Positions 15,073 through 54,650 of a stretch of 64,000 bases of DNA are shown piece by piece; the first letter of the stretch is position 1, and every line of letters starts with the position of its first letter. The notes under the pieces were generated by a model. It was not told where the DNA came from and made no database searches. It saw nothing but the letters and a program-made list of their open reading frames with translations. Source of the stretch: Malacoraja senta. Its lineage: Eukaryota. The stretch lies in the NCBI GenBank assembly GCA_038087875.1, contig CM075990.1, forward strand, positions 6,698,001 through 6,762,000, in the 5' to 3' direction. A program made the position numbers and the translations under genes.

Positions 15073-16066
15073 TTAAACAATAGCAACAGCACTCAATATT
15101 GAGTTAGCAAACAGCCCTCCATCGGCAATCGGCCGATGGTAGTATTGCTGAAACACAAGTTCATTTTTCCAACCTGCGGCTTTTAATATATGGTCGATGG
15201 GAACGTCCATCGCCCTGGCCGCGGATGTTGCTACTGCGCTAGTGGAATGAGATGTAAACACATAAATGTTAATTCCTGCCTGAACCAACTCTTGCTTTAA
15301 CCACCTTGAGATAGTCTGAACTGCCACTCTTTTATGTTGGCTTTTTGTAACTGACAAATAATCCTGTTTCTTCTTGTCTTAAAGCCCTTGTGGCTTCAAT
15401 GTAATGTAACAAATGTGTCCTTACACATAAACATGGAGCTGTAGGATATGCTGAGAACACAATCTTAAAACCTGTCACACCTGGCCTGCTTTGTTTGAGC
15501 AGGTCAGAAATATAAAACAGAACATTCTCTGTATTCACTTCCATTCTCTCGAACTGAAGTTTTTTGGAAAGTCTGCACTCTCTGTACTGACACCAATGCC
15601 ATTAGCATAGCCAATTTCATGGTTAATTTTAACAAAGTTATAGCCGTGACAGGGACCCAATGACGAAGTATGTTACGAACAACGCTTACCTCGCAGATTA
15701 CCATATACCTAGGCTTAGGCGGTTTGGAATTAGATTCCTTTCATCAACCTAGATATGAGAGGGTGAGAACCTATACTTTGTGTCCGTGTACCTATTACAA
15801 GATATGCAGACAAAGCACTTCTAGCTGTATTGATAGCAGTATAGCTAAGACCTTCATCATAATAAAGTGTAGATAAACTCTAACACATTTTCAATAACTA
15901 CAGTATCATATTGAATATTCTTTTGAACACAATATTGTTCCTTTTTTTTTTTTTTTTCATAAGTCATATACTGTTTTTGAGTACTCTTTCTCCAGACTGC
16001 AGCGAGTATATACACCGTTGGCCTAGAAAGTCCTCGACCAATGTAAGGCATTCTTGAAACCTGCAA
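15073..16066 (-). pseudogene. DIRS tyrosine recombinase, frameshifted
   Basis: Fragments KLAMLMALVSVQRVQT, LKQSRPG, QTISRWLK..FTSHSTSAVATSA..ILKAAGW..FQQYYHR; the HSTR motif reads HSTS. Confidence 0.9.
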
Positions 16067-16089
16067 ACTAACAGATCCATACCGTCACA

Positions 16090-17700
16090 TAACGGATGAA
16101 CTTAATGCGTTACTGGATGCTCCAGCAAATTCCTACTGTTTGGAATCAGCAAAAAGAGGTTGGATCGCTATCTGTAACATCAAAGGGAACCATGGTTGAA
16201 TAGGCAATTTGGTATCACCAAAACCCCTGAAGCGGCATCCTGCTTGATTTTCTCAAACACCGACCTATGAGGCAGAATGGTGGGAAAATGTACACAAACA
16301 TATCATCCCAATTTAGTGAAAAGCATCAATTGCCACTGCCCCTGGATCTGGTGCCTATGAAACATATTTTGGCCTTCCATATAGAAGTACTATGTTCTTG
16401 AACACATCCTGGTTCCACATCCACTCTGTGTTATGATGGAATTTTCGTGAGCTGCCATCTGGTACTACATTAAGTTTCCCTGGCAGATAGATAGCTCCAA
16501 TCCAAATCTCTCTATCCCTACTCCAGGTCCAATTGTATTTGCCAACCTGTCACATGATAACGATTTGATTCCACCCATGTGATTCATATCAGCAACTGCT
16601 GTAGTGTTGTCTATTTTGCACTGCACATGCAAACTAGTTTAGTTAGTGTCATAAGCCTTGAGTCCATAAAATACTCTTGGTTAATTCCCCATGTATGCAG
16701 AAGCAATGTTCATCTGTCTCCACCGCTGGATCTTGTATCAGTAGCACCCTACCCAAGTGCTCTGACATCTGTCTGCAAATCATGGAAGCTTGGTCCAATA
16801 ACACTTTGGAACTACTAGTGGACACATGCTGAATCCACCATTGTACATCAGAAACAGCCTCTATTGATAGAAGCATAGGTCTATTATAATGACCCCAATG
16901 TATCCTCAATGCTTGTTCCTTTGACCTTTGTAATTCTAGATAATAAAGTGGCCATATTGAACTGCTGGAAATGCTGCCAGCCATTACCACAGCAGTCTTG
17001 TCACCTGGCTAATTGAAGGCTGTGTGTTAGCAATTAACTTGATATAGCTCTTAATTAGCTCTACCCTTTTTTGCCTGGGCAAGGTCACAATGATGTTGAT
17101 TAAGTCCATTGTGAACCCAACTAGTCAATTTGTGTCACAGGTATAAATTTAGATTTCTCAGAATAGCTTATAAAGCCCAATTAAAAATTGTTTTTTACCA
17201 ACTGCCACTGATGCTTCAGCTGTTTCCTTTGATTGTCCTACAATCAAGATATTATCTAGCTAAGCCATGAGCACATGACCTTGACTTCTCATCATGCCTA
17301 GAATAGGTTTTAACAGCTTTGTAATCCCTCTAGGAGCTGAAGACAAACCATTAGGCAGTGGATTGTAGTGGCATAATTCCCATCCAGCTGAATTTTAAAT
17401 CTTCTATCCTGCAAATGAACAGACACTGAATCCGCATCTTTAAGATCTCCTTCACAAACGTTTCCATCTTAAAATGTCTATACCGTACAAAAGGGTTAAG
17501 CCTATTCAGGTCTGTATAATTCTGCATCCCCCCCATCCTTTTTTGGTCTGGGAAAGATATTGGACACAACCTGATGGCTTTGGTAAACTGCCTTAGCAAT
17601 TACACCTTTATTACATAAGCTTGCAAGTTCCAGCTGAACTTCCAATTGTTCAGTGATACTGAAGTCAAACTCCTTTTATGGAACATGTTGCATGGGTAAA
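16090..17700 (-). pseudogene. DIRS reverse transcriptase / RNase H / adenine-methyltransferase-like ORF, decayed
   Basis: Hand translation: RHFKMET; NGLSSAPRGITKLLKP..MA*LDN (YLDD position); NTTAVADMNHMGG..YLPGKLNVVPD (RNase H); AIDAFSLNW..YIFPPF..VIPN..QPWFP (MT-like). Confidence 0.9.
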
Positions 17701-17865
17701 TCAGAATTTGCATTTAAGCTTTATTCGATGCCCTTGAATAACCTTCAGTATAAACATATCTGAGGTAAACATTTAATTGTATCACATTAGATCTGTCTAC
17801 ATGAGAACCAGACCCTCTTACCTCCTTACCACCTGGCATTCTTCCCCGGCCTTGAGCTGGATATC

Positions 17866-18686
17866 TCACCTCCGTGGCGGTGCTACAGCTGAACGCCAAC
17901 TGCGCTGCATCGTAGCTGGACTCGTCCCTTGCCTGGACCAGTCTGCTCCCTTATAGGGATACTTCCGCTTTGGTGAATATGTGGCTGCCGTCTTAGCCTC
18001 CTCCTCCAGCTCCTTCACCTGCTGTGCGAAATCCTCGCCAAACAGCTGTGCCAGTTGCACTGTGCCAGGCTGGCAGAGTGAAGCATATTTAGCATTGATG
18101 GTTGGTCTAATCGCATCTTGCGGAGGCAATTGATCTCAAAGTGGGCACTCCACAATAGCGCCTTTTGTTGTAATTTGTCATGCCCTCTCCATCCACCATC
18201 CTGGCAAAGCTCGTTATACCAGATGCCAGCAACTTTAAAAATATGCTGGAGCTTCACATGCTCCTGGGCTTTCCTTAGTATGCCCATCTTGCCCCAATTC
18301 TTCCTGTTCCCAACAGGAACTTTTAACAGTCCACAGTTGATTGGGGCTTCATACTTCGTTACTGTCTCATCCATTGTCAGCTCCTGTAGCTGATGTGAGA
18401 CTTGGTAATTTATGCTGGTGGCAAGTTCCTCACCCAGAGGCTCACCAGCATCCGACGACATGGCAAACCGTGCTGCACACGGTGTCAGCTCTGACAGCTG
18501 CCTGCCCTCCCTTTGGAAGTCGTCGGATTCAGGGTCAGTATCTGCCCTTCTGCACTCACCTCTTGCAAAGAGGGTGCTTTCAAGCAGGCCTCTACTAGGC
18601 ACTGCCAGCGGAGCCGTCCCCACGGCCTCCCGCCTGCACAACTCCTCCTGGAGTATGGCTTTATGAAGCAGGCCTCTACTAGGCAC
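17866..18686 (-). pseudogene. DIRS ORF1 (gag-like), frameshifted
   Basis: Position 5' of RT inside the element; YEAPINCGLLKVP and IRPTINAKYASLC..LFGEDFAQQVKEL motifs. Confidence 0.7.
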
Positions 18687-18822
18687 TGCCAGCAGAGCCT
18701 TCCCTAAGGCTTCCCGCCTGCACTACTCCTCCTGGAGTTGTGGCTTTATGAGGCAGACCTCTCCTAGGCACTGCCAGCGGAGCCTTCCCTATGGCTTCCC
18801 ACCTGCACTACTCCTCCTGGAG
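18582..18822. repeat. 3 x 84/85-bp tandem repeat in the DIRS ORF1 5' region
   Basis: Units start at 18582, 18666 and 18751 (aagcaggcctctactaggcactgccagc...). Confidence 0.9.
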
Positions 18823-21427: not shown

Positions 21428-21602
21428 CCTTCTTCTTGTCGAGTCCACACACAAGATTAGACGTTGTTCAGCCAGAGCTGAACGCACTTCACTGCATCTG
21501 CATACAATAGTGTCTGCTTTGCCCTTCTTGTGTTTCTTGTGCGTGGTGGTGGAAAGATTGGTGGAAACAGGGCCGCGACGTGAACGCTCTTTCCTTGACC
21601 CC
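21428..21602 (-). mobile_element. Short ribozyme-headed retroposon, family B (possibly Vingi/Ingi-type non-autonomous)
   Basis: TSD agtgtcatct/agcgtcatct (21418-21427, 21603-21612); (gaa)n tail; HDV-like head. Confidence 0.85.
21551..21602 (-). ncRNA. HDV/CPEB3-like ribozyme fold (52 nt)
   Basis: GGGGUC-AA-GGAAAGA-GCG-UUCACGU-CGC-GGCCCU-GUUUCCA-CCAA-UCUUUCC: P1 6 bp with G1-U, P2 7 bp, P3 3 bp. Confidence 0.85.
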
Positions 21603-28239: not shown

Positions 28240-28867
28240 TATCTTCGGTGTAATTCGGCATCTGCAGTCCCTGCCTTCACTTGTTTTTCCAGCTGCTTTT
28301 TCTTATCCCCAACAAGCTGCAGAAAGCCCTCCCGCAGTCGCCTGTTCCGTTGCTCTTCCTTCTACTGGGCTGGCTTGGGCCTGGCAACAAATGCACGGTA
28401 AAGTAATCAGGCTGGTGCGTTGCCAATGAAACATCCAGATGATGGCGCCTCAGCCAGGCTGGTTTGAATATATTACGGAGAGCTCTGTGATGCACCATTG
28501 GGCCGATTGTGGAGAAAGCTTCAATGCCATTGTTGTGATGGAAGGCAGATGCTGAAAGCTTCCACCCTAAAGTTTCAACGGGGAACAATGACATGGAGTT
28601 TGCGAGGCTGTAACTCAGCCACGATCAGGTTCCTGAGGTTCAGTGACCTTTAGTATAATGAATAGCTCCTCCATTTTGATGAATGTGTACACAGAAGGGT
28701 CACCGGCTGCTCCTATTGTTCCGAGCTCTTTGTGATTAAATTATCCTGCCTGCTCAGTGACTCGTTCATTCCCGTTTTCTGGCATGACCCAGTACTGAAT
28801 TCCCTCCCGCCTGGCTGTGGCCTACTTCCCCCTCTGTTGCCGCTTCCTCTCAGCCTTGTTTTCACAG

Positions 28868-28979
28868 CGAGAGTGTGCACCGCAGGGGACTCATCGCAGA
28901 AGCCTTCAAAGAGCCGCAACGATCCACTCTCACTGACGGCTCTGGCGGAAATGCGACGGCAGCTGATGCTGGGGAGGAG
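28868..28979 (+). other. Candidate 112-bp exon of an unidentified host gene
   Basis: Long polypyrimidine acceptor ...ccttgttttcacag| and donor gag|gtaagg; non-repetitive and CpG-retaining; two frames open. Confidence 0.4.
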
Positions 28980-29236: not shown

Positions 29237-29436
29237 NNNNNNNNNNNNNNNNNNNNNNNNNNNNNNNNNNNNNNNNNNNNNNNNNNNNNNNNNNNNNNNN
29301 NNNNNNNNNNNNNNNNNNNNNNNNNNNNNNNNNNNNNNNNNNNNNNNNNNNNNNNNNNNNNNNNNNNNNNNNNNNNNNNNNNNNNNNNNNNNNNNNNNNN
29401 NNNNNNNNNNNNNNNNNNNNNNNNNNNNNNNNNNNN
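29237..29436. other. Assembly gap (200 N)
   Basis: Run of N. Confidence 1.
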
Positions 29437-34382: not shown

Positions 34383-34846
34383 TGTTGAACATGCAGTAAG
34401 CTGTACTCAAGGAGCAATTTATCCATGATGATTGAGAAGCGGAATCAATGGGCAATGTGACTTTTCTTGCTCTGTCTTATCATATTCATTGTCCGAACAT
34501 TATAGTTGATCTCTGTAGGAAGATGTAGGCTCATGGTTCAGTCTTTCAAAACAAAAATCTATCATGAAAAATCCTGGACAAAAATGCAACAGACCTAACA
34601 ATTAGCAGCAAAATTAGAAGCAAGGGAATAAAAGGAAAGCTGCCAAGTCAGGGTGTAGATGATGGCACCTCCTCATCTCTGAGCTGGAAGGTTGTGAGTT
34701 CAACTCCCACTACAGAGAGATGAGCACTAAATCTAGGCTGATTCATCAGTGTAGCATTAACATTGTCGTGGGTTGGAGAAGTTTTACATAAGGTGTCACC
34801 CTGTGCCCTCATGATGTTGTGCAGTGTAGATGTCCATATCCCAGAA

Positions 34847-34974
34847 CTTCTTCTACTTGCGTATGGCGTGCACAGCCTAAGTTGTAGGACAACTTGTTCT
34901 ATTTGATTGTGCACACAGGTTGATCGTGTTTGTCGAAACAGGCGGACCACGTGAAAGTTGCAATCTCCCACCCC
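34847..34974 (-). mobile_element. Short ribozyme-headed retroposon, family A (decayed copy)
   Basis: Colinear with 54513-54650; TSD atcccaga / atccccaga (34838-34845, 34975-34983). Confidence 0.85.
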
Positions 34975-35975: not shown

Positions 35976-36094
35976 TAAGGCACTCGTTGACATCTCCACT
36001 CTCTGAACTGCGGACACATGGTATTTACTGTAGAACATTTTCTGTAACCACTTCGGTATAAACCAGCATCTGCAGTTCCTTCCTACACTTCCCA

Positions 36095-36390
36095 CACACG
36101 GTGGCACAGCGGTGGAGTTGCTGCTTTACAGCGCCAGAGATCCTGACTATGGGTGCTGTCTGTATGGAGTTTGTACGTTCTCCCCGTGACCATGTGGGTT
36201 TTCATCGGGTGCTCTGGTTTCCTCCACACTCCAAAGACGTTCAGGTTTGTGGGTCAATCGGCTTTGGTAAAAATTGTAAATTGTCCATGTGTGTGGGACA
36301 GTGTTGGTGTACAGGGTGATTGCTGGGCAGCGCGATCGGTAGGCCAAAGGGCCTGTTTCCGCGCTGGATCTCTGAACTCCAAACTCTAAA
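36095..36390 (+). mobile_element. HE1/V-SINE-like SINE
   Basis: Family head, body and tail. Confidence 0.85.
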
Positions 36391-37489
36391 CATGGTATTT
36401 CTGCAGAAAACTTTCTGTAACCACTTCGGCATAAACCAACATTTGCAGTTCCTTCCCACACATGGTATTTTCCGTCTTTACTTGACATCGAAATGGGAGA
36501 TTATCGCTCGCAATTGGAATGAGGGAGGATTCAGCTGAGTGGAATGTGGGACAGCTGCTTAGGCCATCATTCTCCTGTTAATGTGAAGGGATTTCTGCCC
36601 TGAAACACTGGGCTGAATACATTGTGTTGTGTGTTTCAGGGCTTCGCTGCTCTCTCTCTCTCCTGAGACAGTTCTCCCATGTGCAGCTATCTGCAGCCTT
36701 TTTTCTCTTTCATTGAAACTTTAACTGGGGCACAGTTCAGAAAAATCCCTCCTCTTTAGAAGAATGTCGCAGTCTCACAGCCAACAAATGGGAAATATGA
36801 AGAAAGCAAGGGTGGATGAGCAAAATTGTTGCGTGAGCCATAACATTTTTTTGCACTAAACCCTCGGATTAACACTTAGACAGTGGGATGCATTTGACCT
36901 GGCAAATCTGAGCTGTAGCTCAAACAGAGTTTAGGTTTTTAATGCACCAACTCCAAGCAGCGCAGGAGGCGTCTGGTTGTTCTGAATTGGAGCCATCTAC
37001 AATCCCTTTAAGTTCACACCTAGAAGTGAGCCATTAATAACTCTCCCCCTTCAGATGCCTTACAGCGGTCGGTCGGCGCAAAGCTAATTTACACCTCGAA
37101 AATGCCAAGCGGAGCTGTTGGGTGCTGTGTAAGGATTGTGTGGGTCAGGGCTGTGGGTTGGAATGTTTTGCTGCAATTTTGCGTGGTATCGGCTCGTAAA
37201 AAGGGAATCAGAAGGCAAGTAAATTAACTAAGCTTAACAGAGTTGAAGGGTCAGCCAATTCTTTGGTGTTTAAATATGACCGAATTTTCCAAAGATGTGA
37301 TCGCAGTGGCAGGCAGGTTAAAGGTGAAGGGAGGATAGACCTACTGCCTGGGTATTTGATGTTGCCAATTGAAACAAACAAAAAAGTTAGAAAAGAATAT
37401 TTCAATTGTAGTAAGTGTTATTCTCAACCTTACCCAAATGGAAGTGTGAAATTGATGTTCCCCAAAAAAGTACTTCATATAGAAGAGAG

Positions 37490-37730
37490 ACAGAAATAGC
37501 TGGGGTAACTCAACAGGTCAGCAGCATCCCTGGAGAAAAGGAATAGGTGATGTTTCGGGTCGAGACCCTTCTTCAGACTCACTTCCTCAGACTTCAGAGG
37601 CTGAAGAACGGTCTCAACCCGAAACATCACCTATACCTATTCTCCAGAGATGCTGCCTGAACAGTTGAGTTACTCCAGCTTTTTGAGTCTACCTTCGGTG
37701 TAAACCAGAATTCTGCAGTTCCTTCCTACA
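37490..37730. mobile_element. Penelope-like palindrome with two divergent hammerhead-like cores
   Basis: gtttcgggtcgagacccttcttcag ... ctgaagaacggtctcaacccgaaacatc. Confidence 0.7.
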
Positions 37731-37745
37731 GTTCTTCATATTTGT

Positions 37746-38058
37746 AGTTTAGTTTAGTTTAGAGATTCAGTGCGGAAACAGGCCCTTCGGCCCACCGGGT
37801 CCGCGCCGACCAGTGATACCCGCATATTAACACTATCCTACACACACCAGGGACAATTTACACATACCCCAAGCGAATTAACCTACATACCTGTCCATCT
37901 TTGGGTTGTGGGAGGAAACAGAAGATATCAGATTAAACCCACACAGGTCACAGGGAGAAGGTACAAACTCCGTGCAGAAAGCACTCGTAGTCGGGATCGA
38001 ACCCGGGTCTCTGGCGCTGTAAGCGCTGTAAGGCAGCAACTCTACCATTGCGCCACCA
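37746..38058 (-). mobile_element. HE1/V-SINE-like SINE
   Basis: Full copy, minus strand. Confidence 0.9.
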
Positions 38059-38349
38059 TGACAAAAGCATGACAAAGGCCCAGCATTCACACACTTCTGG
38101 ATGCGATAACCTTGTACATCACAAGGGCAGGATAATCACTCACCCTGCAGCATACATCCTCAATGCTGGACCTTTCAATGTGCAACACCATTTCTGAGCC
38201 AGATTGTCAGCTCAGCTTCTTAGTGTTTCGTTGGGTTCAAATCCTATACCAAAGTCAGCAATGTCTGGGCTGGCAAACCTGTGGTGCTGATGGTGTACAA
38301 CAATGTCAACCACACCAACTCCCAATAGATTTAAACCCAGATAAAAAGT

Positions 38350-38600
38350 CGTTCTTTTAGGAAGGAGATGAGGAGAAATTTCTTTAGTCAGAGGGTGGTG
38401 AATCTGTGGAATTCTTTGTAAAAGTCAGTGGATATTTTGAAGGCAGTGATAGATATTGATTAGTACAGGTGTCAGAGGTTATGGGGAGAAGGCAAGAGAA
38501 TGGGGTTAGGAGGGAGAGATAGATCAGCCATAATTGAATGGTGGAGTAGATTTGATGGGCCGAATGGCCTAATTCTACTCCTATTACATGTGACATGATG
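38350..38600 (+). mobile_element. CR1 3' fragment
   Basis: gaaggagatgaggagaaatttctttagtcagagggtggtgaatctgtggaattc. Confidence 0.85.
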
Positions 38601-39159
38601 TATCCTCCCAAAAGGGCAGTAATATACTGTGTCTCAGGGCACTATTTTACAAAGACCACAGTGTCCTGGACAATGTTCATCCGTTAAAGGACCGCTAATG
38701 CTGATCATCAACTCACACGTTTTATGGGTGTTTGTTGTGGGCAAAATAGCAGCCAAGTTTCCTACAGTAAAACTGCAATGGAAGTTTATTAGTTGAGTGG
38801 CAAGATTTTTTTCCATTTAATTGATGCCTCTGTTTTACTAGGCACAGGGAGTATAAAGAAAACCTTACTTTTAAATAAATGGAGGGCAGTGTTCCAAGTA
38901 GCATACGAGCAGGCGAGAATTGACCCTGAATTATACCGGGCAGATGAATAATAGTTTAAGGATAGCTAAATACAGAGGTGAAGTCATGCAAAGCTTTATA
39001 TGGTGCTTTCACAACCTCCAAGTCTCTCAAAGCAATTCATACTTTGACTTGGATTGAAGAATATGCTCAGAGTCTCCTTGAAGCAATGTCCACATTGACT
39101 CCTAGAAACCTCTGGGCCACAACTGTACCAAGTGGGGAAGCAGCAGTCAACATGGTGTT

Positions 39160-39610
39160 GAGCTCAGTCCAAAGAAGGGTCTCGACCCGAAATGTCACCC
39201 ATTCCTTCTCCCCAGAGATGCTGCCTGTCCCGCTGAGTTACTCCAGCATTGTGTGTCTATCTTCGGTTTAAACCAGCGTCTGCAGTTCCTTCCTATCCAT
39301 GGTGTTGAGAACCTCATGTCCATACTGCAGGGACACAGAGAGACAGCCCTGTGGACAGAGAGCACCGCCTCTCCAGCTACCCACCTGCCCGCCCCATCAG
39401 TTACCCAACTGAATCATCTACGGAAGAGCAAAACACAAAGTGCTGGAGCAACCCAACGGGTCAGGTAGCATCAGTGGAAGGAATGGACAGACATTGTTTC
39501 GGATCGGGACCCTTCGGACTGATTGTGGTAGGGGGGAGGGGAAAGCTGAAATAAAGAGGTGGGGCAGGACAAAGCCTAGCAAGTGATAGGTGGATACAGG
39601 TGAGTGGGGT
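39160..39610. mobile_element. Two Penelope-like terminal repeat arms
   Basis: 39160-39300 (+) and 39430-39610 (-) family sequence. Confidence 0.65.
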
Positions 39611-39639
39611 TTGACTCATCTGCTGATTAATCCCCCGAG

Positions 39640-39880
39640 CCATCAGTCCGTCCACCAACCTTCTGCTTTCTATGAGTAAGCCAGTTCTGAATAAAAGTCA
39701 CCATGAATCCTATGCATCATAATCTTCTGGATCAGCCTACTATGAGGGACTTTATAAAATGGCTAAAATCCATGTAGACAATATCCATTGCCAAACCCTC
39801 ATAGATCACCTTGGTCACCTCAATAAACTCAATTGAGTTCATAAGGCAAGACCTTGCAGACAAAGCCATGTCCCTAATTA
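39640..39880 (-). mobile_element. CR1 reverse-transcriptase fragment
   Basis: Minus-strand translation RSCLMNSIEFIEVTKVIYEGLAMDIVYMDFS. Confidence 0.7.
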
Positions 39881-39921
39881 AACACAAGGTGCTTGGGGCA
39901 AAGAAACATCTAGCAGTGCAA

Positions 39922-40228
39922 TTTAGTTTAGTTTAGTTTAGAGGAACAGCACAGAAACAGGCCCTTTGACCCACCAAGTCCGCACCGACCATTGATCCCT
40001 GCACAACAACACTACCCTACACACACTAGGGACAAGTTACATTTACCAAGCGAATTAACCTACAAACCTGTACGTCTTTGGAGTGTGGGTGGAAACCGAA
40101 GATCTCGGAGAAAACCCACGTAGGTCACGGGGAGAACGTGCAAACACCGTGCAGACAGCACCCGTTGTCAGGATCGAAACAGGGTCTCTGGCGGCAGTCA
40201 GGCAGTAGTTCTACCGCTACACCACAGT
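39922..40228 (-). mobile_element. HE1/V-SINE-like SINE
   Basis: Full copy, minus strand. Confidence 0.85.
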
Positions 40229-40899
40229 GCAAGTTAAGTCTAAGATTTTGGTCAGCAAGCTACAGAAATCTCCACTTCTGATCTCCACCACATAGGCAGG
40301 AATGACGCCTTGGAACTAAAGGTGGAGGAAATCTTTGATGTTGATGGGAGAAGGCCGAAGGGGGTTTTGTAGATGTCAACGAGAATTTAAAACAGACTTC
40401 TATTTAATAGAAAGTCTGTTCATGGCTGGTTTACAATTTAGTTTTCCAATTCCTTTTAAATATTTACAGTTTTGTCCAAAGCCAGAGAGATGAAAACTTA
40501 GATTACAGTGTGGGCCGTTTTGTTACAAGATCAAGCAAGAACACAACTGGCTTCTGGCTAGCCTTACTTGGAAACCTAAGAGCTCCCAACATTGAAAAAA
40601 AAAGTATTTTATTAGAATCACTGTTTATTCAAGAATGCATAATACTTTTTGTTTCGTTCTCGATTAGGTTTGGGTTTCCATAGGCTTATATTTTTTAACT
40701 GCCATTGGCAAACAACAGCAAAAAAAACATAGTATTTCATATATTTATGGGGATGACAGTAGATTAATCTGGGAGAAAAGGTCAAATCCCAACATTTGAG
40801 GCCTACAGCTGAAAAGAAGTCTTAAAAATTGGAAGTAAAATGCTGAAATAAGCAGGTGCAACCACAAAGCTGCCAGATTATTATCAAAACCTAGTGAAT

Positions 40900-41180
40900 T
40901 CAAAGATAATGCATGGAAACAGGCCCTTCGGCCCATTGAATCAATGCCGACCATCGATCATCCATTCACACTAGTTGTATGTTATCCTATTTTATCATAC
41001 ACTCCCTACACACCAGGGACAATTTGCAGAGGCCAATTAACCTACAAACCTGCACGTCTTTGGGATATGGGAGGTGATCAGAGCACCCAGAAGAAGCCCA
41101 CATGGTTACAGAGAGCATGCAAACTCCACACAGACAGCACCCCATGGTTTCTGGAGAGGTGAGGCAACAGCTCTAACTGC
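40900..41180 (-). mobile_element. HE1/V-SINE-like SINE
   Basis: Family sequence, minus strand. Confidence 0.8.
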
Positions 41181-41604
41181 TCTATGCAGCAGCAGACCAG
41201 GCATGAGTATATCAGGGCATGCAACAGAGAAAAGAAACAGCGTGCAGAATACAGTGATACAGCTACAGAGAAAGTGCAGATAAAAGAAATGTGCGTAGAC
41301 CTTAATGAAGTAGATTGGAAGATCGGGAGTTTATTGTCAGGAAATAAAAGGTCCGTTCTTGTCCGATAACAATGGTGGTATTTGCTTTCAAGATTTTGTA
41401 CCTTGCCTGACATGAGAGCGAAGAGGGAATGGGCAGGATTTGAGTGATCAACATGACTGCTTTCCTGAGGCAGTACAGATGCTGTAGATAGGGGGAAAGC
41501 TGTTTTACTTACTGCATACGCAACAACTGTTCAACTTCTCCTGGTCTTGGGCAGAGCAGTGGCCATAATGATGGAAATAATAAAATGGATATGGTGTATT
41601 AAGG

Positions 41605-41900
41605 GCTGCACAGTGGTGCAGCGGTAGAGTTGCTGCCTTGCATCGCCGGAGACCCGGGTTCGTTCCTCATTAAGGGTGCTGTCTGTTTGTACGTTCTCCC
41701 TATCACCATGTGTGTTGTGGTGGGGTGCTCCGGTTTCCTTCCACACTCCAAACACGTGCAGGCTTGTAGGTTAATTGGCTCTGGTAAAATCATAAATTGT
41801 CCCTACTGTGTGCTACCGTACGGGGTGATCGCTGGTCGGCACGGACTTGATGGGATGAAGGGACCTGTTTTTGCATTGTATCTCTAAAGTCTAATATCTA
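41605..41900 (+). mobile_element. HE1/V-SINE-like SINE
   Basis: Family head, body and tail. Confidence 0.85.
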
Positions 41901-43174
41901 AATCTGTGTAAATTGGTAACAGCTGTTAGAAACATGTGGAATTCCCTTAATCTTATGGTGGTGGTGTGCTTTCATGGCCATGGTGCTAAGGTGGGTTAGA
42001 CCAGGACTAACTATTGGTGGTATTCACACCTTGGGAACTTACAACTTTTCCTTGTTTCAAGTTGCTCCTGGAGGTGCCAGTTACACGGGGACATAAGGCA
42101 TTGCCCATGGCACAAGGGACAAGGCACAAAGAGTGAATGCCTGAGTGACACAAGAGTCCTCCTTTGCGTATGTTCTGAGGAGGGAACTAGGTCATTTCTA
42201 CGCCGCACTCTGAAAGGCGTCGCGGCATCGATGGACCCAGCCAACTCGGCAGATGGACCTTTACGCACCTGATAAACCTCAAACTCAGTTCCAAGTGCCG
42301 ACCAAGGCCAACGTACGACACCCTTTCAAACGGTGGCTCATGCCCGTCTCTCAACCAATGAATCAATGAGCATGTACTGACAAAGGGAAAAAGCTCACCT
42401 CTAGCCTACTTACTCCTGCACAAGTAGAAAGATGCAAGTGAACAACATAGAAGCAGACTTTTATGTTTAGCTGGCGTTGTTTGCTGTTGAATTCAGACAT
42501 GGTGCTTACTCTACATCCTGTTGTGTGAATTACAGACTGAAGCAGTGAGATTAAGTGTGGAGTATGATCCTCCATGCTTTAAAAACTAGGACACGCAAGC
42601 AGTCATTAATCATCGCTTATTGTTACAGTTGGAGGCACCTGGAAGGTTTTCTCAGTGTTTTCGCAGGAAGTTCATCCAAGTCTTCATCTATTTTGAAGCC
42701 CCTGGGGAGATAAGAGAATAGTTGCTTCCTGAAGAAACTTTGTATGTGAACTTAAAAGGAGAGGGGAAATCAAATAAATTACTGTTGTAATATTCAGAGT
42801 ATGTTTCCTACAGTGTGTGTTGGGAATATGGAAAATAAGACAAGGTACATGAGGTTGAAGTGTATCTATTTTAAGGGATAACTTCCTGAGTTATAGTCAT
42901 GGATAATGCAACTTATGTAGAGTGAATGTGCTCTTGCTCAAAGCACCCGCTATTTATTTTAAAACTTTGCAAAAAAATTAAAGTAAATAGAGTTATAAGT
43001 AAGCCATGAGTGTGAATGTCTCTGATTGGATAAACAAGGGTTTAGTTTAGTTCAGTTTAGTTGACTTTAATTTATTTAAGAAGGTTTCGGCCCGAAACGT
43101 TGCCTATTTCCTTCGCTCCATAGATGCTGCTGCACCCGTTGAGTTTCACCAGCACTTTTGTCTACCTTACTTTA

Positions 43175-43460
43175 TTTGAGTTTAGTTTAGAGATGCAGCG
43201 TGGAAACAGGCTCTTCAGCGTCAGTCTGCGCCAATCAAAAATCACCCAAACGCTAGTTCTATCCTACACACTAGGGACAATTTGCAAAGCCATTTAAACC
43301 TACACAAACCTTTGGAATGTACGAGGAAACGGGCGCACCCGGAGGAAAGGCACGCAGTCACGGGGAGAAGGTAAAAACTCCGTACAGACAACACCCGTAG
43401 TCAGGATCGAACCGGGTCTGTGGTGCTGCGAGGCAGCAACTGTACTGCTGTGCCACTCTG
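43175..43460 (-). mobile_element. HE1/V-SINE-like SINE
   Basis: Family sequence, minus strand. Confidence 0.85.
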
Positions 43461-43479
43461 CCGCCTTCATGATGACCAC

Positions 43480-43572
43480 GGGATGCAAGCAGAAGCCTCC
43501 ACGTGGCGCATCCCGGGCAATGCTGATGACAGAAACTGTACCACAGTGACTGACTGAAGTAGCCAATTTTGC
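43480..43572 (+). ncRNA. HDV-like ribozyme fold (93 nt, long P4 region)
   Basis: P1 GGGAUGC/GCAUCCC, P2 GCAGAA/UUUUGC, P3 GCC/GGC, L3 UCCACGU, P1.1 CC/GG, J4/2 GCCAA (putative catalytic C at 43563). Confidence 0.88.
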
Positions 43573-43648
43573 AACCACCGACCGTCAACCATCACTGACC
43601 GACCGGAAAGACATGATATAGAAGATGGCCGGACACGAGGAAGGAAGA
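43480..43648 (+). mobile_element. Short ribozyme-headed retroposon, family C
   Basis: Perfect 11-bp TSD atgatgaccac (43469-43479, 43649-43659); tail acacgaggaaggaaga. Confidence 0.88.
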
Positions 43649-43694
43649 ATGATGACCACAGCTAGAACAATCAGCAGGTCAGCCTACCATGTCG

Positions 43695-44080
43695 TGGGGA
43701 GAGAGGGAGAGGGAGGGGAGAGGAGGGGAGAGGGAAAGGGAGAGAGAGGGGGAGGGTGGGGGAGAGGGAGAGGAAGAGGGAGAGGGAGAGAGAGGGGGAG
43801 AAGGAGAGGGAGGGGAAGGGGAGGGGGAGGGAGGAGGGGAAATGGAGAGGGGGAGGGGGAGAGGGAGAGGGAGAGGGAGAGGGAGAGGGAGAGGGAGAGG
43901 GAGAGGGAGAGGGAGAGGGAGGGGGAGGGGGAGAGGGAGGGGGAGGGGGAGAGGGAGGGGGAGAGGGAGAGGGAGGGGGAGGGAGAGGGAGAGAGGGGGA
44001 GAGAGGAAGAGAGAGATAGAGGAAGAGAGTGGGAGAGGGAGCAAGAGGGAGCAAGGGGGGGAGAGAGAAAAGGGAGAGAA
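43695..44080. repeat. Polypurine (gaggga)n low-complexity tract
   Basis: Directly visible. Confidence 0.95.
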
Positions 44081-54030: not shown

Positions 54031-54512
54031 ACCTACACAAGCTAAAACCAAATAAATTTGACCCGGGGCAGATTTTATTCCGAACATAATGTATGTAATT
54101 CTTCTTCGGCCCCCCTCGGTCATGGCTGACCATGGGTGTCTCCAGGGTGTTATCCCTATATGGAGGACGCCTGTGCGTGACTTTGTTTAACGTGGGGAGA
54201 CTGATGCACAGACAGCCACCCCACGGTCCTTGACAGATCTCGGTCAGGATCCAGTGGCATGGAGTCCAAGACGACCGGAGACCCTTTTCTGCTGCAGCTT
54301 TCATCCACCTTCCCAGCCGTTGTGACGCTCCACAAAGGTCAGCCATCATCCTCCTCCTGTTCCACCGTTGAGGTCTTGGTTGGATTGCTCTTTGTTAGAG
54401 ACCTCCCCCTCGACCTTACCACAATGGGTGGCCCTTCCAGGAACATAGCTCCAGACGGCATCGCTCTCAGGATCTCAGGTCCACACAAGCTTCTCCACCA
54501 CGACAAGGTGAC

Positions 54513-54650
54513 TTCTTCTTCTTGCATATGGCGTGCACAGCCTAAAGTTGTAAGACAACTTGTTCTGTTTGATCTTCTCTTTGTGCACGCCAGGTGGATT
54601 GCATTCGTTGAAACAGGGTGGACCACGTGAAGGTTGCAATCGCCCACCCC
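54513..54650 (-). mobile_element. Short ribozyme-headed retroposon, family A (138 bp)
   Basis: Perfect 11-bp TSD gacaaggtgac (54502-54512, 54651-54661); (gaa)n tail. Confidence 0.92.
54597..54650 (-). ncRNA. HDV/CPEB3-like ribozyme fold (54 nt)
   Basis: GGGGUGG-GC-GAUUGCA-ACC-UUCACGU-GGU-CCACCCU-GUUUCAA-CGAA-UGCAAUC: P1 7 bp with G1-U, P2 7 bp, P3 3 bp, J4/2 CGAA. Confidence 0.9.

Follow-up and report, generated by a model that had tools for sequence, protein, structure and literature searches.

The feature at positions 43480 to 43648 of the window analyzed here (a 64,000-nucleotide stretch of the Malacoraja senta genome, to which all positions below refer) is a copy of an interspersed repeat 169 nt long, designated family C. 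Its parts are listed in Table 1 together with two further families of ribozyme-headed repeats, an exon-like stretch on the plus strand, and a tRNA-type SINE that adjoins the insertion site; this SINE is abundant, has no relation to family C and is presumably V-SINE-like.

Table 1. Coordinates of the family C copy and of related features in the window
Feature	Position	Strand	Basis or remark
tRNA-type SINE, unrelated, abundant, adjoining the insertion site	43280..43467	-	Sequence
Left target site duplication (TSD)	43469..43479	+	11 bp, identical to 43649-59
Element nt 1-110, 5' end (5' UTR) of parent Vingi-like LINE	43480..43589	+	93.5-96% to L140, L141, L142
HDV-like double-pseudoknot fold	43480..43572	+	Pairing pattern, covariation; cut predicted between 43479/43480
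P1	43480-86/43508-14	+	7 Watson-Crick pairs
J1/2		+	2 nt, between the P1 and P2 strands
P2	43489-94/43567-72	+	6 bp including one G.U
P3	43495-97/43505-07	+	3 bp
L3	43498-504	+	7 nt, with U20/G25 equivalents (T43498, G43503)
P1.1	C43499, C43500 with G43516, G43515	+	Two G-C pairs
P4 region	G43517 to G43562	+	46 nt
Catalytic C75 equivalent, in J4/2	C43563	+	Then C, A, A; A78 equivalent is A43566
Deletion junction	43590..43601	+	12 nt, seemingly made up of short repeats of neighboring 5' sequence
Element nt 123-169, 3' end of parent LINE	43602..43648	+	In 30/30 LINE 3' fragments examined
Right TSD	43649..43659	+	11 bp
Family A	54512-54650 and 34846-34974	-	139-nt ribozyme-headed element, almost no P4
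Family B	21429-21602	-	Ribozyme-headed, 6-bp P1; further copy L154:9172-9346
Exon-like stretch ending at GT donor	28673..28979	+	Contigs of a relative join repeat; probably non-coding

Ribozyme fold and copies of family C

Reading the sequence directly confirmed the HDV-like fold, C43563 and the 11-bp TSD: the nested double pseudoknot of P1, P1.1, P2, P3 and P4 is present, with equivalents of C75 (the catalytic position of HDV; PMC13635239), U20/G25 and A78. A preliminary description made from the sequence alone had read a perfect 7-bp P1, a CC/GG P1.1, a P4 of about 46 nt, GCCAA in J4/2 and a perfect 11-bp TSD, all of which held at the coordinates of Table 1 (11 of 11 TSD positions agree). 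A descriptor of the fold matched once in the window, both strands included, and at least once in 5 of 100 resampled 64-kb windows, so that by itself the descriptor gives P of ∼0.05; the fold at 43480 is secure because it starts exactly at the TSD and covaries across families. A scan against Rfam at gathering score returned no match in the window. Two structural details of the preliminary description fared less well. Two small hairpins had been drawn within P4, for which complementary bases do exist, but ViennaRNA favored a single irregular stem-loop (inner hairpin 43535-39/43543-47). Likewise, the 9-bp closing stem with one mismatch (43578-86/43624-32, with one G.U as well, outside the ribozyme) is present but no stronger than in shuffled sequences (P = 0.29; P = 0.44 in a copy of the parent LINE), and a 5'/3' closing stem was therefore rejected as a family C signal. 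In a pseudoknot-free model the pairing probability of P1 was only 0.22 to 0.72 depending on flank length, and the window copy may therefore misfold.

A search of the species' own genome (1.94 Gb) returned 400 candidate loci, and all 40 that were scored matched over nearly the full length at 96 to 100% identity. Exact cores were found 142 times (28-nt ribozyme core) and 165 times (26-nt tail core), and reversed control patterns of these cores had no match in the same genome; allowing for divergence, we infer some 250 to 300 copies, a number that would include some haplotig duplicates. Across 30 aligned loci the common sequence runs from the first G of P1 (G1) to the (AAG)n tail, and the flanks upstream of G1 have no sequence in common. 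A set of 60 loci, overlapping in part with these 30, showed TSDs of at least 7 nt in 46 copies (11 to 12 nt in 27 of them) and a full P1 strand at the start of 48. The base preceding G1 in this set was T in 32, C in 15, A in 9 and G in 4, an excess of T and C that may reflect a target-site preference or untemplated addition. The ribozyme likely makes this 5' end, as modeled below.

Mean divergence from the column majority was 2.1% (57 copies, a sample biased to close copies). The window copy carries four substitutions, one of which, the T at 43569 where most copies have C, makes the G.U pair of P2, and its tail has one extra G. It is among the 37 of 57 copies in which the 18 core pairs and the catalytic positions are all intact. 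Substitutions in the core (30/2337) were only slightly below those in the rest of the element (48/2381 and 48/2760) in a sample selected via an exact core match. Family C also occurs in contigs of relatives (organisms C, D and E); a contig of organism E spans 43382-43506, of which 27 letters lie on the element side, too few to count as bridging. The claim of an “independent, fairly young family” is borne out as to youth by the 2.1% divergence, with the stated bias of that sample; independence applies to the sequence but not to the origin, since the family arose by deletion from an autonomous LINE that this genome also contains. Most likely the window copy is a mere passenger whose predicted ribozyme is intact.

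Parent LINE and sister families

A Vingi-like LINE met by chance had an HDV-like 5' end and ORFs that stop just short of the tail, which suggested that the family C tail contains the last codons of an ORF. A pattern built on this had a single match, L108, the truncated end of a LINE, with a CCHC motif and the 47-nt tail of family C, whose LINE-specific part in turn matched 41 places with variable 5' truncation. Every one of the 30 LINE fragments examined, truncated to differing lengths, carries the 3' end of family C; in the window copy this segment holds the last ORF codons, the stop (43619-21), a short 3' UTR and the tail. Of the LINE copies that also have the family C 5' end, L140 (full length, about 3.07 kb, 10-bp TSD) and L141 (full length, with a 1.26-kb insertion) begin with element nt 1-110, and L142 (G000:C6:18455500-18458500) has it inverted. 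The element thus keeps both ends of the parent LINE with the interior deleted, which makes it a bipartite non-autonomous LINE, a class reported for RTE, Ingi, Vingi and R2 elements (PMC5786205). CAACCAC-like motifs border the deletion in the parent. As for membership of the SIDEs, family C is multicopy, with TSDs and a LINE-type tail but without an ORF, and the two ends of L140-L142 correspond to its nt 1-110 and its nt 123-169. L142 and a second locus (L100:4937-5174) each place an inverted LINE 5' end beside a short 3' fragment and may be intermediates in the birth of bipartite derivatives.

The parent is about 3.07 kb long and has a single ORF with reverse transcriptase (RT; Pfam, E = 1e-26) and a C-terminal CCHC finger; the ORF was intact in none of the five copies read. 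Its endonuclease (APE) gave a match below the Pfam cut-off (E = 0.032, in a decayed copy) and is clear in a relative of 57% identity (P0001). Pfam detected no RNase H in the C-terminal 240 aa of the parent, in P0001 or in P0021, although UniRef labels the parent's closest relative “ribonuclease H.” The best relatives among longer proteins are from teleosts (57% over 95% of the query; 64% over 57%), followed by insect, lizard and sea-urchin proteins (47 to 52%). In a quick RT tree, none of whose rows carried the label Vingi, the parent fell among proteins of teleosts, Anolis and invertebrates and apart from the RTE and L2-like sequences. Vingi elements are described as compact, with a single ORF encoding APE and RT and, unlike Ingi, without RNase H (PMC13708176); the parent shares the compact single ORF with APE (weak in the parent, clear in P0001) and RT and, by Pfam, the absence of RNase H, and thus looks like a Vingi-like LINE. 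Two other Vingi-like LINE families, tried as parent, had no match to the element, and RTE was rejected in the same role (20 DUF6451 loci and six extended loci have only the (AAG)n tail in common with it).

The fold recurs in relatives of the parent. Families C, A and B and a further Vingi-like LINE, at L071, each have their own P1, P2 and P3 sequences, and in each the strands pair, whereas L3 and the C-N-A-A motif are conserved across all four. The P4 region ranges from about 5 to 46 nt, so that the long P4 is a trait of family C, and the parent LINE has an identical one. Metagenome contigs yielded 80 related loci, 15 of which include or approach the start of the ORF; under a strict scan, four of these 15 (two independent elements, one of full length with a TSD) carried the fold ahead of the ORF, against none of 95 control stretches. 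Similar cores were seen by eye at L246, L251, L259 and L266. On these comparisons of sequence, the HDV-like fold is apparently under selection in the LINE lineage.

Exact 28-mer cores of family A number 2,330 genome-wide, and its last 37 nt are the end of a Vingi-like ORF fragment (L100:5138-5174); the other ribozyme-headed repeats of the window appear to derive from sister LINEs. Families A and B also show 11- to 12-bp complementarity between the segments after P2 and before the tail (P < 0.001 and P = 0.005 versus shuffles). Little or none of it is seen in family C and two LINEs, and it may be an end-pairing signal favored in successful derivatives. A fourth short element, on the minus strand at 54100-54330 and with a further copy at L205:7852-8080, ends in (GAA)n; ribozyme fold scans of it found none, and we take it to be RTE-like. 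Broken frames at 15076-18722 (minus strand; a similar frame lies at L145:5214-5582) presumably resemble a DIRS-type element (RT plus tyrosine recombinase).

Host context and orientation of genic copies

To the left of the element, one study of a relative (organism A) has contigs in two runs that start at 28673 or 28844, reach 28979 and part from the genomic sequence precisely at the GT donor. This supports plus-strand splicing at that position in the relative, although the RNA status of these runs is a tool's guess (one is flagged as probably DNA); a DNA run, X8, reads on past 28979. The sequence joined is a repeat, a 27-mer of which has five exact matches genome-wide, and the one copy nearby, on the plus strand and 9.4 kb outside the window, has no AG acceptor in the assembly. 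A 200-N assembly gap at 29237-29436, 257 bp past the donor, could hide the real one. No next exon was found within the window. For 36000-43690 no RNA data set was listed, which speaks neither for nor against a transcript. The open frame of the exon had no homolog among nine candidates and no Pfam family (28861 peptide scanned), and in organism D the exon differs at 5 of 112 nt against 40 of 775 overall, with no coding signal. No host coding exon was recognized in the window, in the 150 kb upstream of it or in the 80 kb downstream of it, a region in which the Pfam check covered the downstream phosphatase gene and the 28861 peptide only. That gene, the nearest recognized coding gene, encodes a FERM-PDZ-tyrosine phosphatase (PTPN13/20-like; L153-L164, G000:C14:6.84-6.96 Mb), lies some 80 kb past the window, on the minus strand, and holds antisense copies of families A, B and C in its introns. 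The plus-strand host transcript raised in the preliminary description is supported, within that guess on RNA status, by the joint at 28979 in a relative, but no coding gene was recognized over the site, and the element may lie in a non-coding transcript.

Orientation relative to genes was assessed in 10 kb around each of 60 family C copies (three pairs being near twins), in which exons were predicted and 465 candidates scanned in Pfam and 10 in PDB. Pfam matches to host genes came from four loci (L205, L214, L223 and L229) plus one below the cut-off (L216), the others being transposon domains. The genes at the copies were those for FANCI (L223), RET (L229), a formin FH3 protein (L205), WASF (L201) and SEMA6D (L226; weak match, E = 0.14), and the copy at L154 lies inside the phosphatase gene. 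Each of the six family C copies that could be assigned to an identified gene, inside it or at it, is antisense, and three of the six have identified exons on either side. One family A and one family B copy in those genes are antisense too. In the same genes, control repeats were near even (tRNA-type SINE: 19 sense, 17 antisense; CR1: 14 sense, 10 antisense), giving a Fisher P of 0.024 for family C, on a small sample, and of 0.005 with families A and B. Two loci were set aside: L216, with a same-strand Pfam match below the cut-off, and L214, which lacks part of P1 and lies on the same strand 3.2 kb upstream of a BCL7-like first exon. That exon (L214:8280-8360) has an apparent one-base frameshift, through an assembly error or as a pseudogene. 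PDB named a gene for three of six antisense and none of four sense candidates, chosen with the orientation known. An antisense bias of intronic copies, for which the preliminary description had proposed a genome-wide test, is thus seen in six of six placements, but the sample is tiny and blind counts by top exon candidate ran from 23:15 to 7:2 antisense (P = 0.06 to 0.30). The difference from the control repeats hints that sense copies in genes are purged, rather than that the ribozyme has a host role.

Mechanism, alternatives and known systems

We consider it very probable that the 169-nt element is an internally deleted Vingi-like LINE whose HDV-like head likely frees its RNA from read-through transcripts for retrocopying, as reported for R2, L1Tc/NARTc and RTE elements (PMC6765202; PMC4035085). 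A copy would be transcribed from a host promoter or by read-through; the double pseudoknot is predicted to fold, with C43563 as general acid, and cleavage just before G43480 would set the exact 5' end. The APE-RT protein of the parent would then bind the common 3' end and prime reverse transcription at a staggered DNA break, leaving TSDs of 10 to 14 bp and the (AAG)n tail; such a cycle would yield what is seen in the genome, dispersed copies starting at or beside the first G of P1. Sense insertions in genes may cut the pre-mRNA and would likely be purged, so that the surviving genic copies are antisense. Purging would fit the reported finding that splicing was blocked by a fast HDV ribozyme in an intron but not by a slow hammerhead (PMC2995048).

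The window copy might instead act in sense within a long plus-strand intron as a CPEB3-like cut site that lowers or tunes the host RNA. Its core is intact, two runs of a relative place a joint exactly at the predicted donor, and one of the five exact matches of the joined 27-mer lies on the plus strand beyond the window. Against this, the nearby joined copy has no AG acceptor (unless the gap hides one), the contigs are RNA by guess, the exon lacks a coding signal, the copy is no better conserved than others, and genic family C copies are antisense, all of which makes such a role very unlikely. Nor do we think it likely that the head is mainly an internal Pol II promoter or translation element whose fold is kept while cleavage is slow or irrelevant in vivo. 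Pr77, at the head of L1Tc, is both promoter and ribozyme (PMC4035085), HDV-like heads have been proposed to help translation (PMC6765202), and an internal promoter starting at +1 would give identical exact 5' ends; yet all helices covary, the catalytic C is conserved in four families, and the antisense excess is missing in control repeats. Derivation from RTE, or from a tRNA-headed Pol III SINE, is extremely improbable. RTE elements are the usual source of bipartite elements (PMC5786205), and the RTE family of this genome also ends in (AAG)n, but similarity to 20 RTE loci never extends beyond 14 nt, the parent ORF is 22% identical to that of the genome's RTE, and ARAGORN found no tRNA gene in 43000-44000, where the head is a LINE 5' end; both ends of the element match another LINE, and this parent refutes either origin.

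Retrocopying of a ribozyme-freed RNA thus remains the preferred reading, and it allows a broader, more tentative proposal, which we hold with somewhat less than even confidence: that Vingi-clade LINEs generally carry a working HDV-like ribozyme and that their short derivatives are strand-specific transcript cutters purged from sense introns. If true, hundreds of family C and over 2,300 exact-core family A copies would be such cutters, the genome would be a natural experiment, thousands of copies strong, on the question whether pre-mRNA processing in vivo is aborted by a fast ribozyme in an intron, and the few copies that survive in sense, the window copy among them, would mark dispensable or ribozyme-tuned transcripts. 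Reporter studies disagree on whether cutting within an intron blocks splicing (PMC2995048); intact copies that are antisense only, a pattern not seen in neighboring non-ribozyme repeats, would settle the question by population genomics. Vingi, together with its native 5' UTR, is also under development for gene writing (PMC13708176), for which a 169-nt natural template shows which LINE ends suffice.

In the passages of the literature covered, no description of family C and no tie between a ribozyme and Vingi was found; either may already be in print. Ribozyme-headed bipartite LINEs are a known class, of which family C is a further member. The genomic HDV and CPEB3 ribozymes have the P1, P1.1, P2, P3, P4 topology and the C75 equivalent in common with family C (PMC13635239). 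Viral HDV has two G-C pairs in P1.1, as here, whereas in the CPEB3 ribozyme, which is conserved and occurs singly in an intron, P1.1 is weakened (PMC13635239); family C is multicopy with no sign of conservation for the host. R2 SIDEs are likewise ribozyme-headed, internally deleted non-LTR elements, but they insert in 28S rDNA using an RLE protein, whereas family C is dispersed (PMC3414825). Bipartite Vingi derivatives, such as those of Vingi-1_EE, share the internal deletion of a Vingi-type LINE, and Vingi-type derivatives have a similar tail before the microsatellite (PMC5786205); the 5' end of Vingi-2_Gav, found in SINE2-1_AMi (PMC5786205 supplement), has P2 strands and a J1/2 length identical to those of family C. 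NARTc and RIME, derived from L1Tc and ingi of trypanosomes, are alike in joining LINE 5' and 3' ends under an HDV-like head, with TSDs and no ORF (PMC4035085); family C differs from them in lying in a vertebrate genome, in a parent without an RNase H match, and in its predicted 93-nt ribozyme with a 46-nt P4 region.
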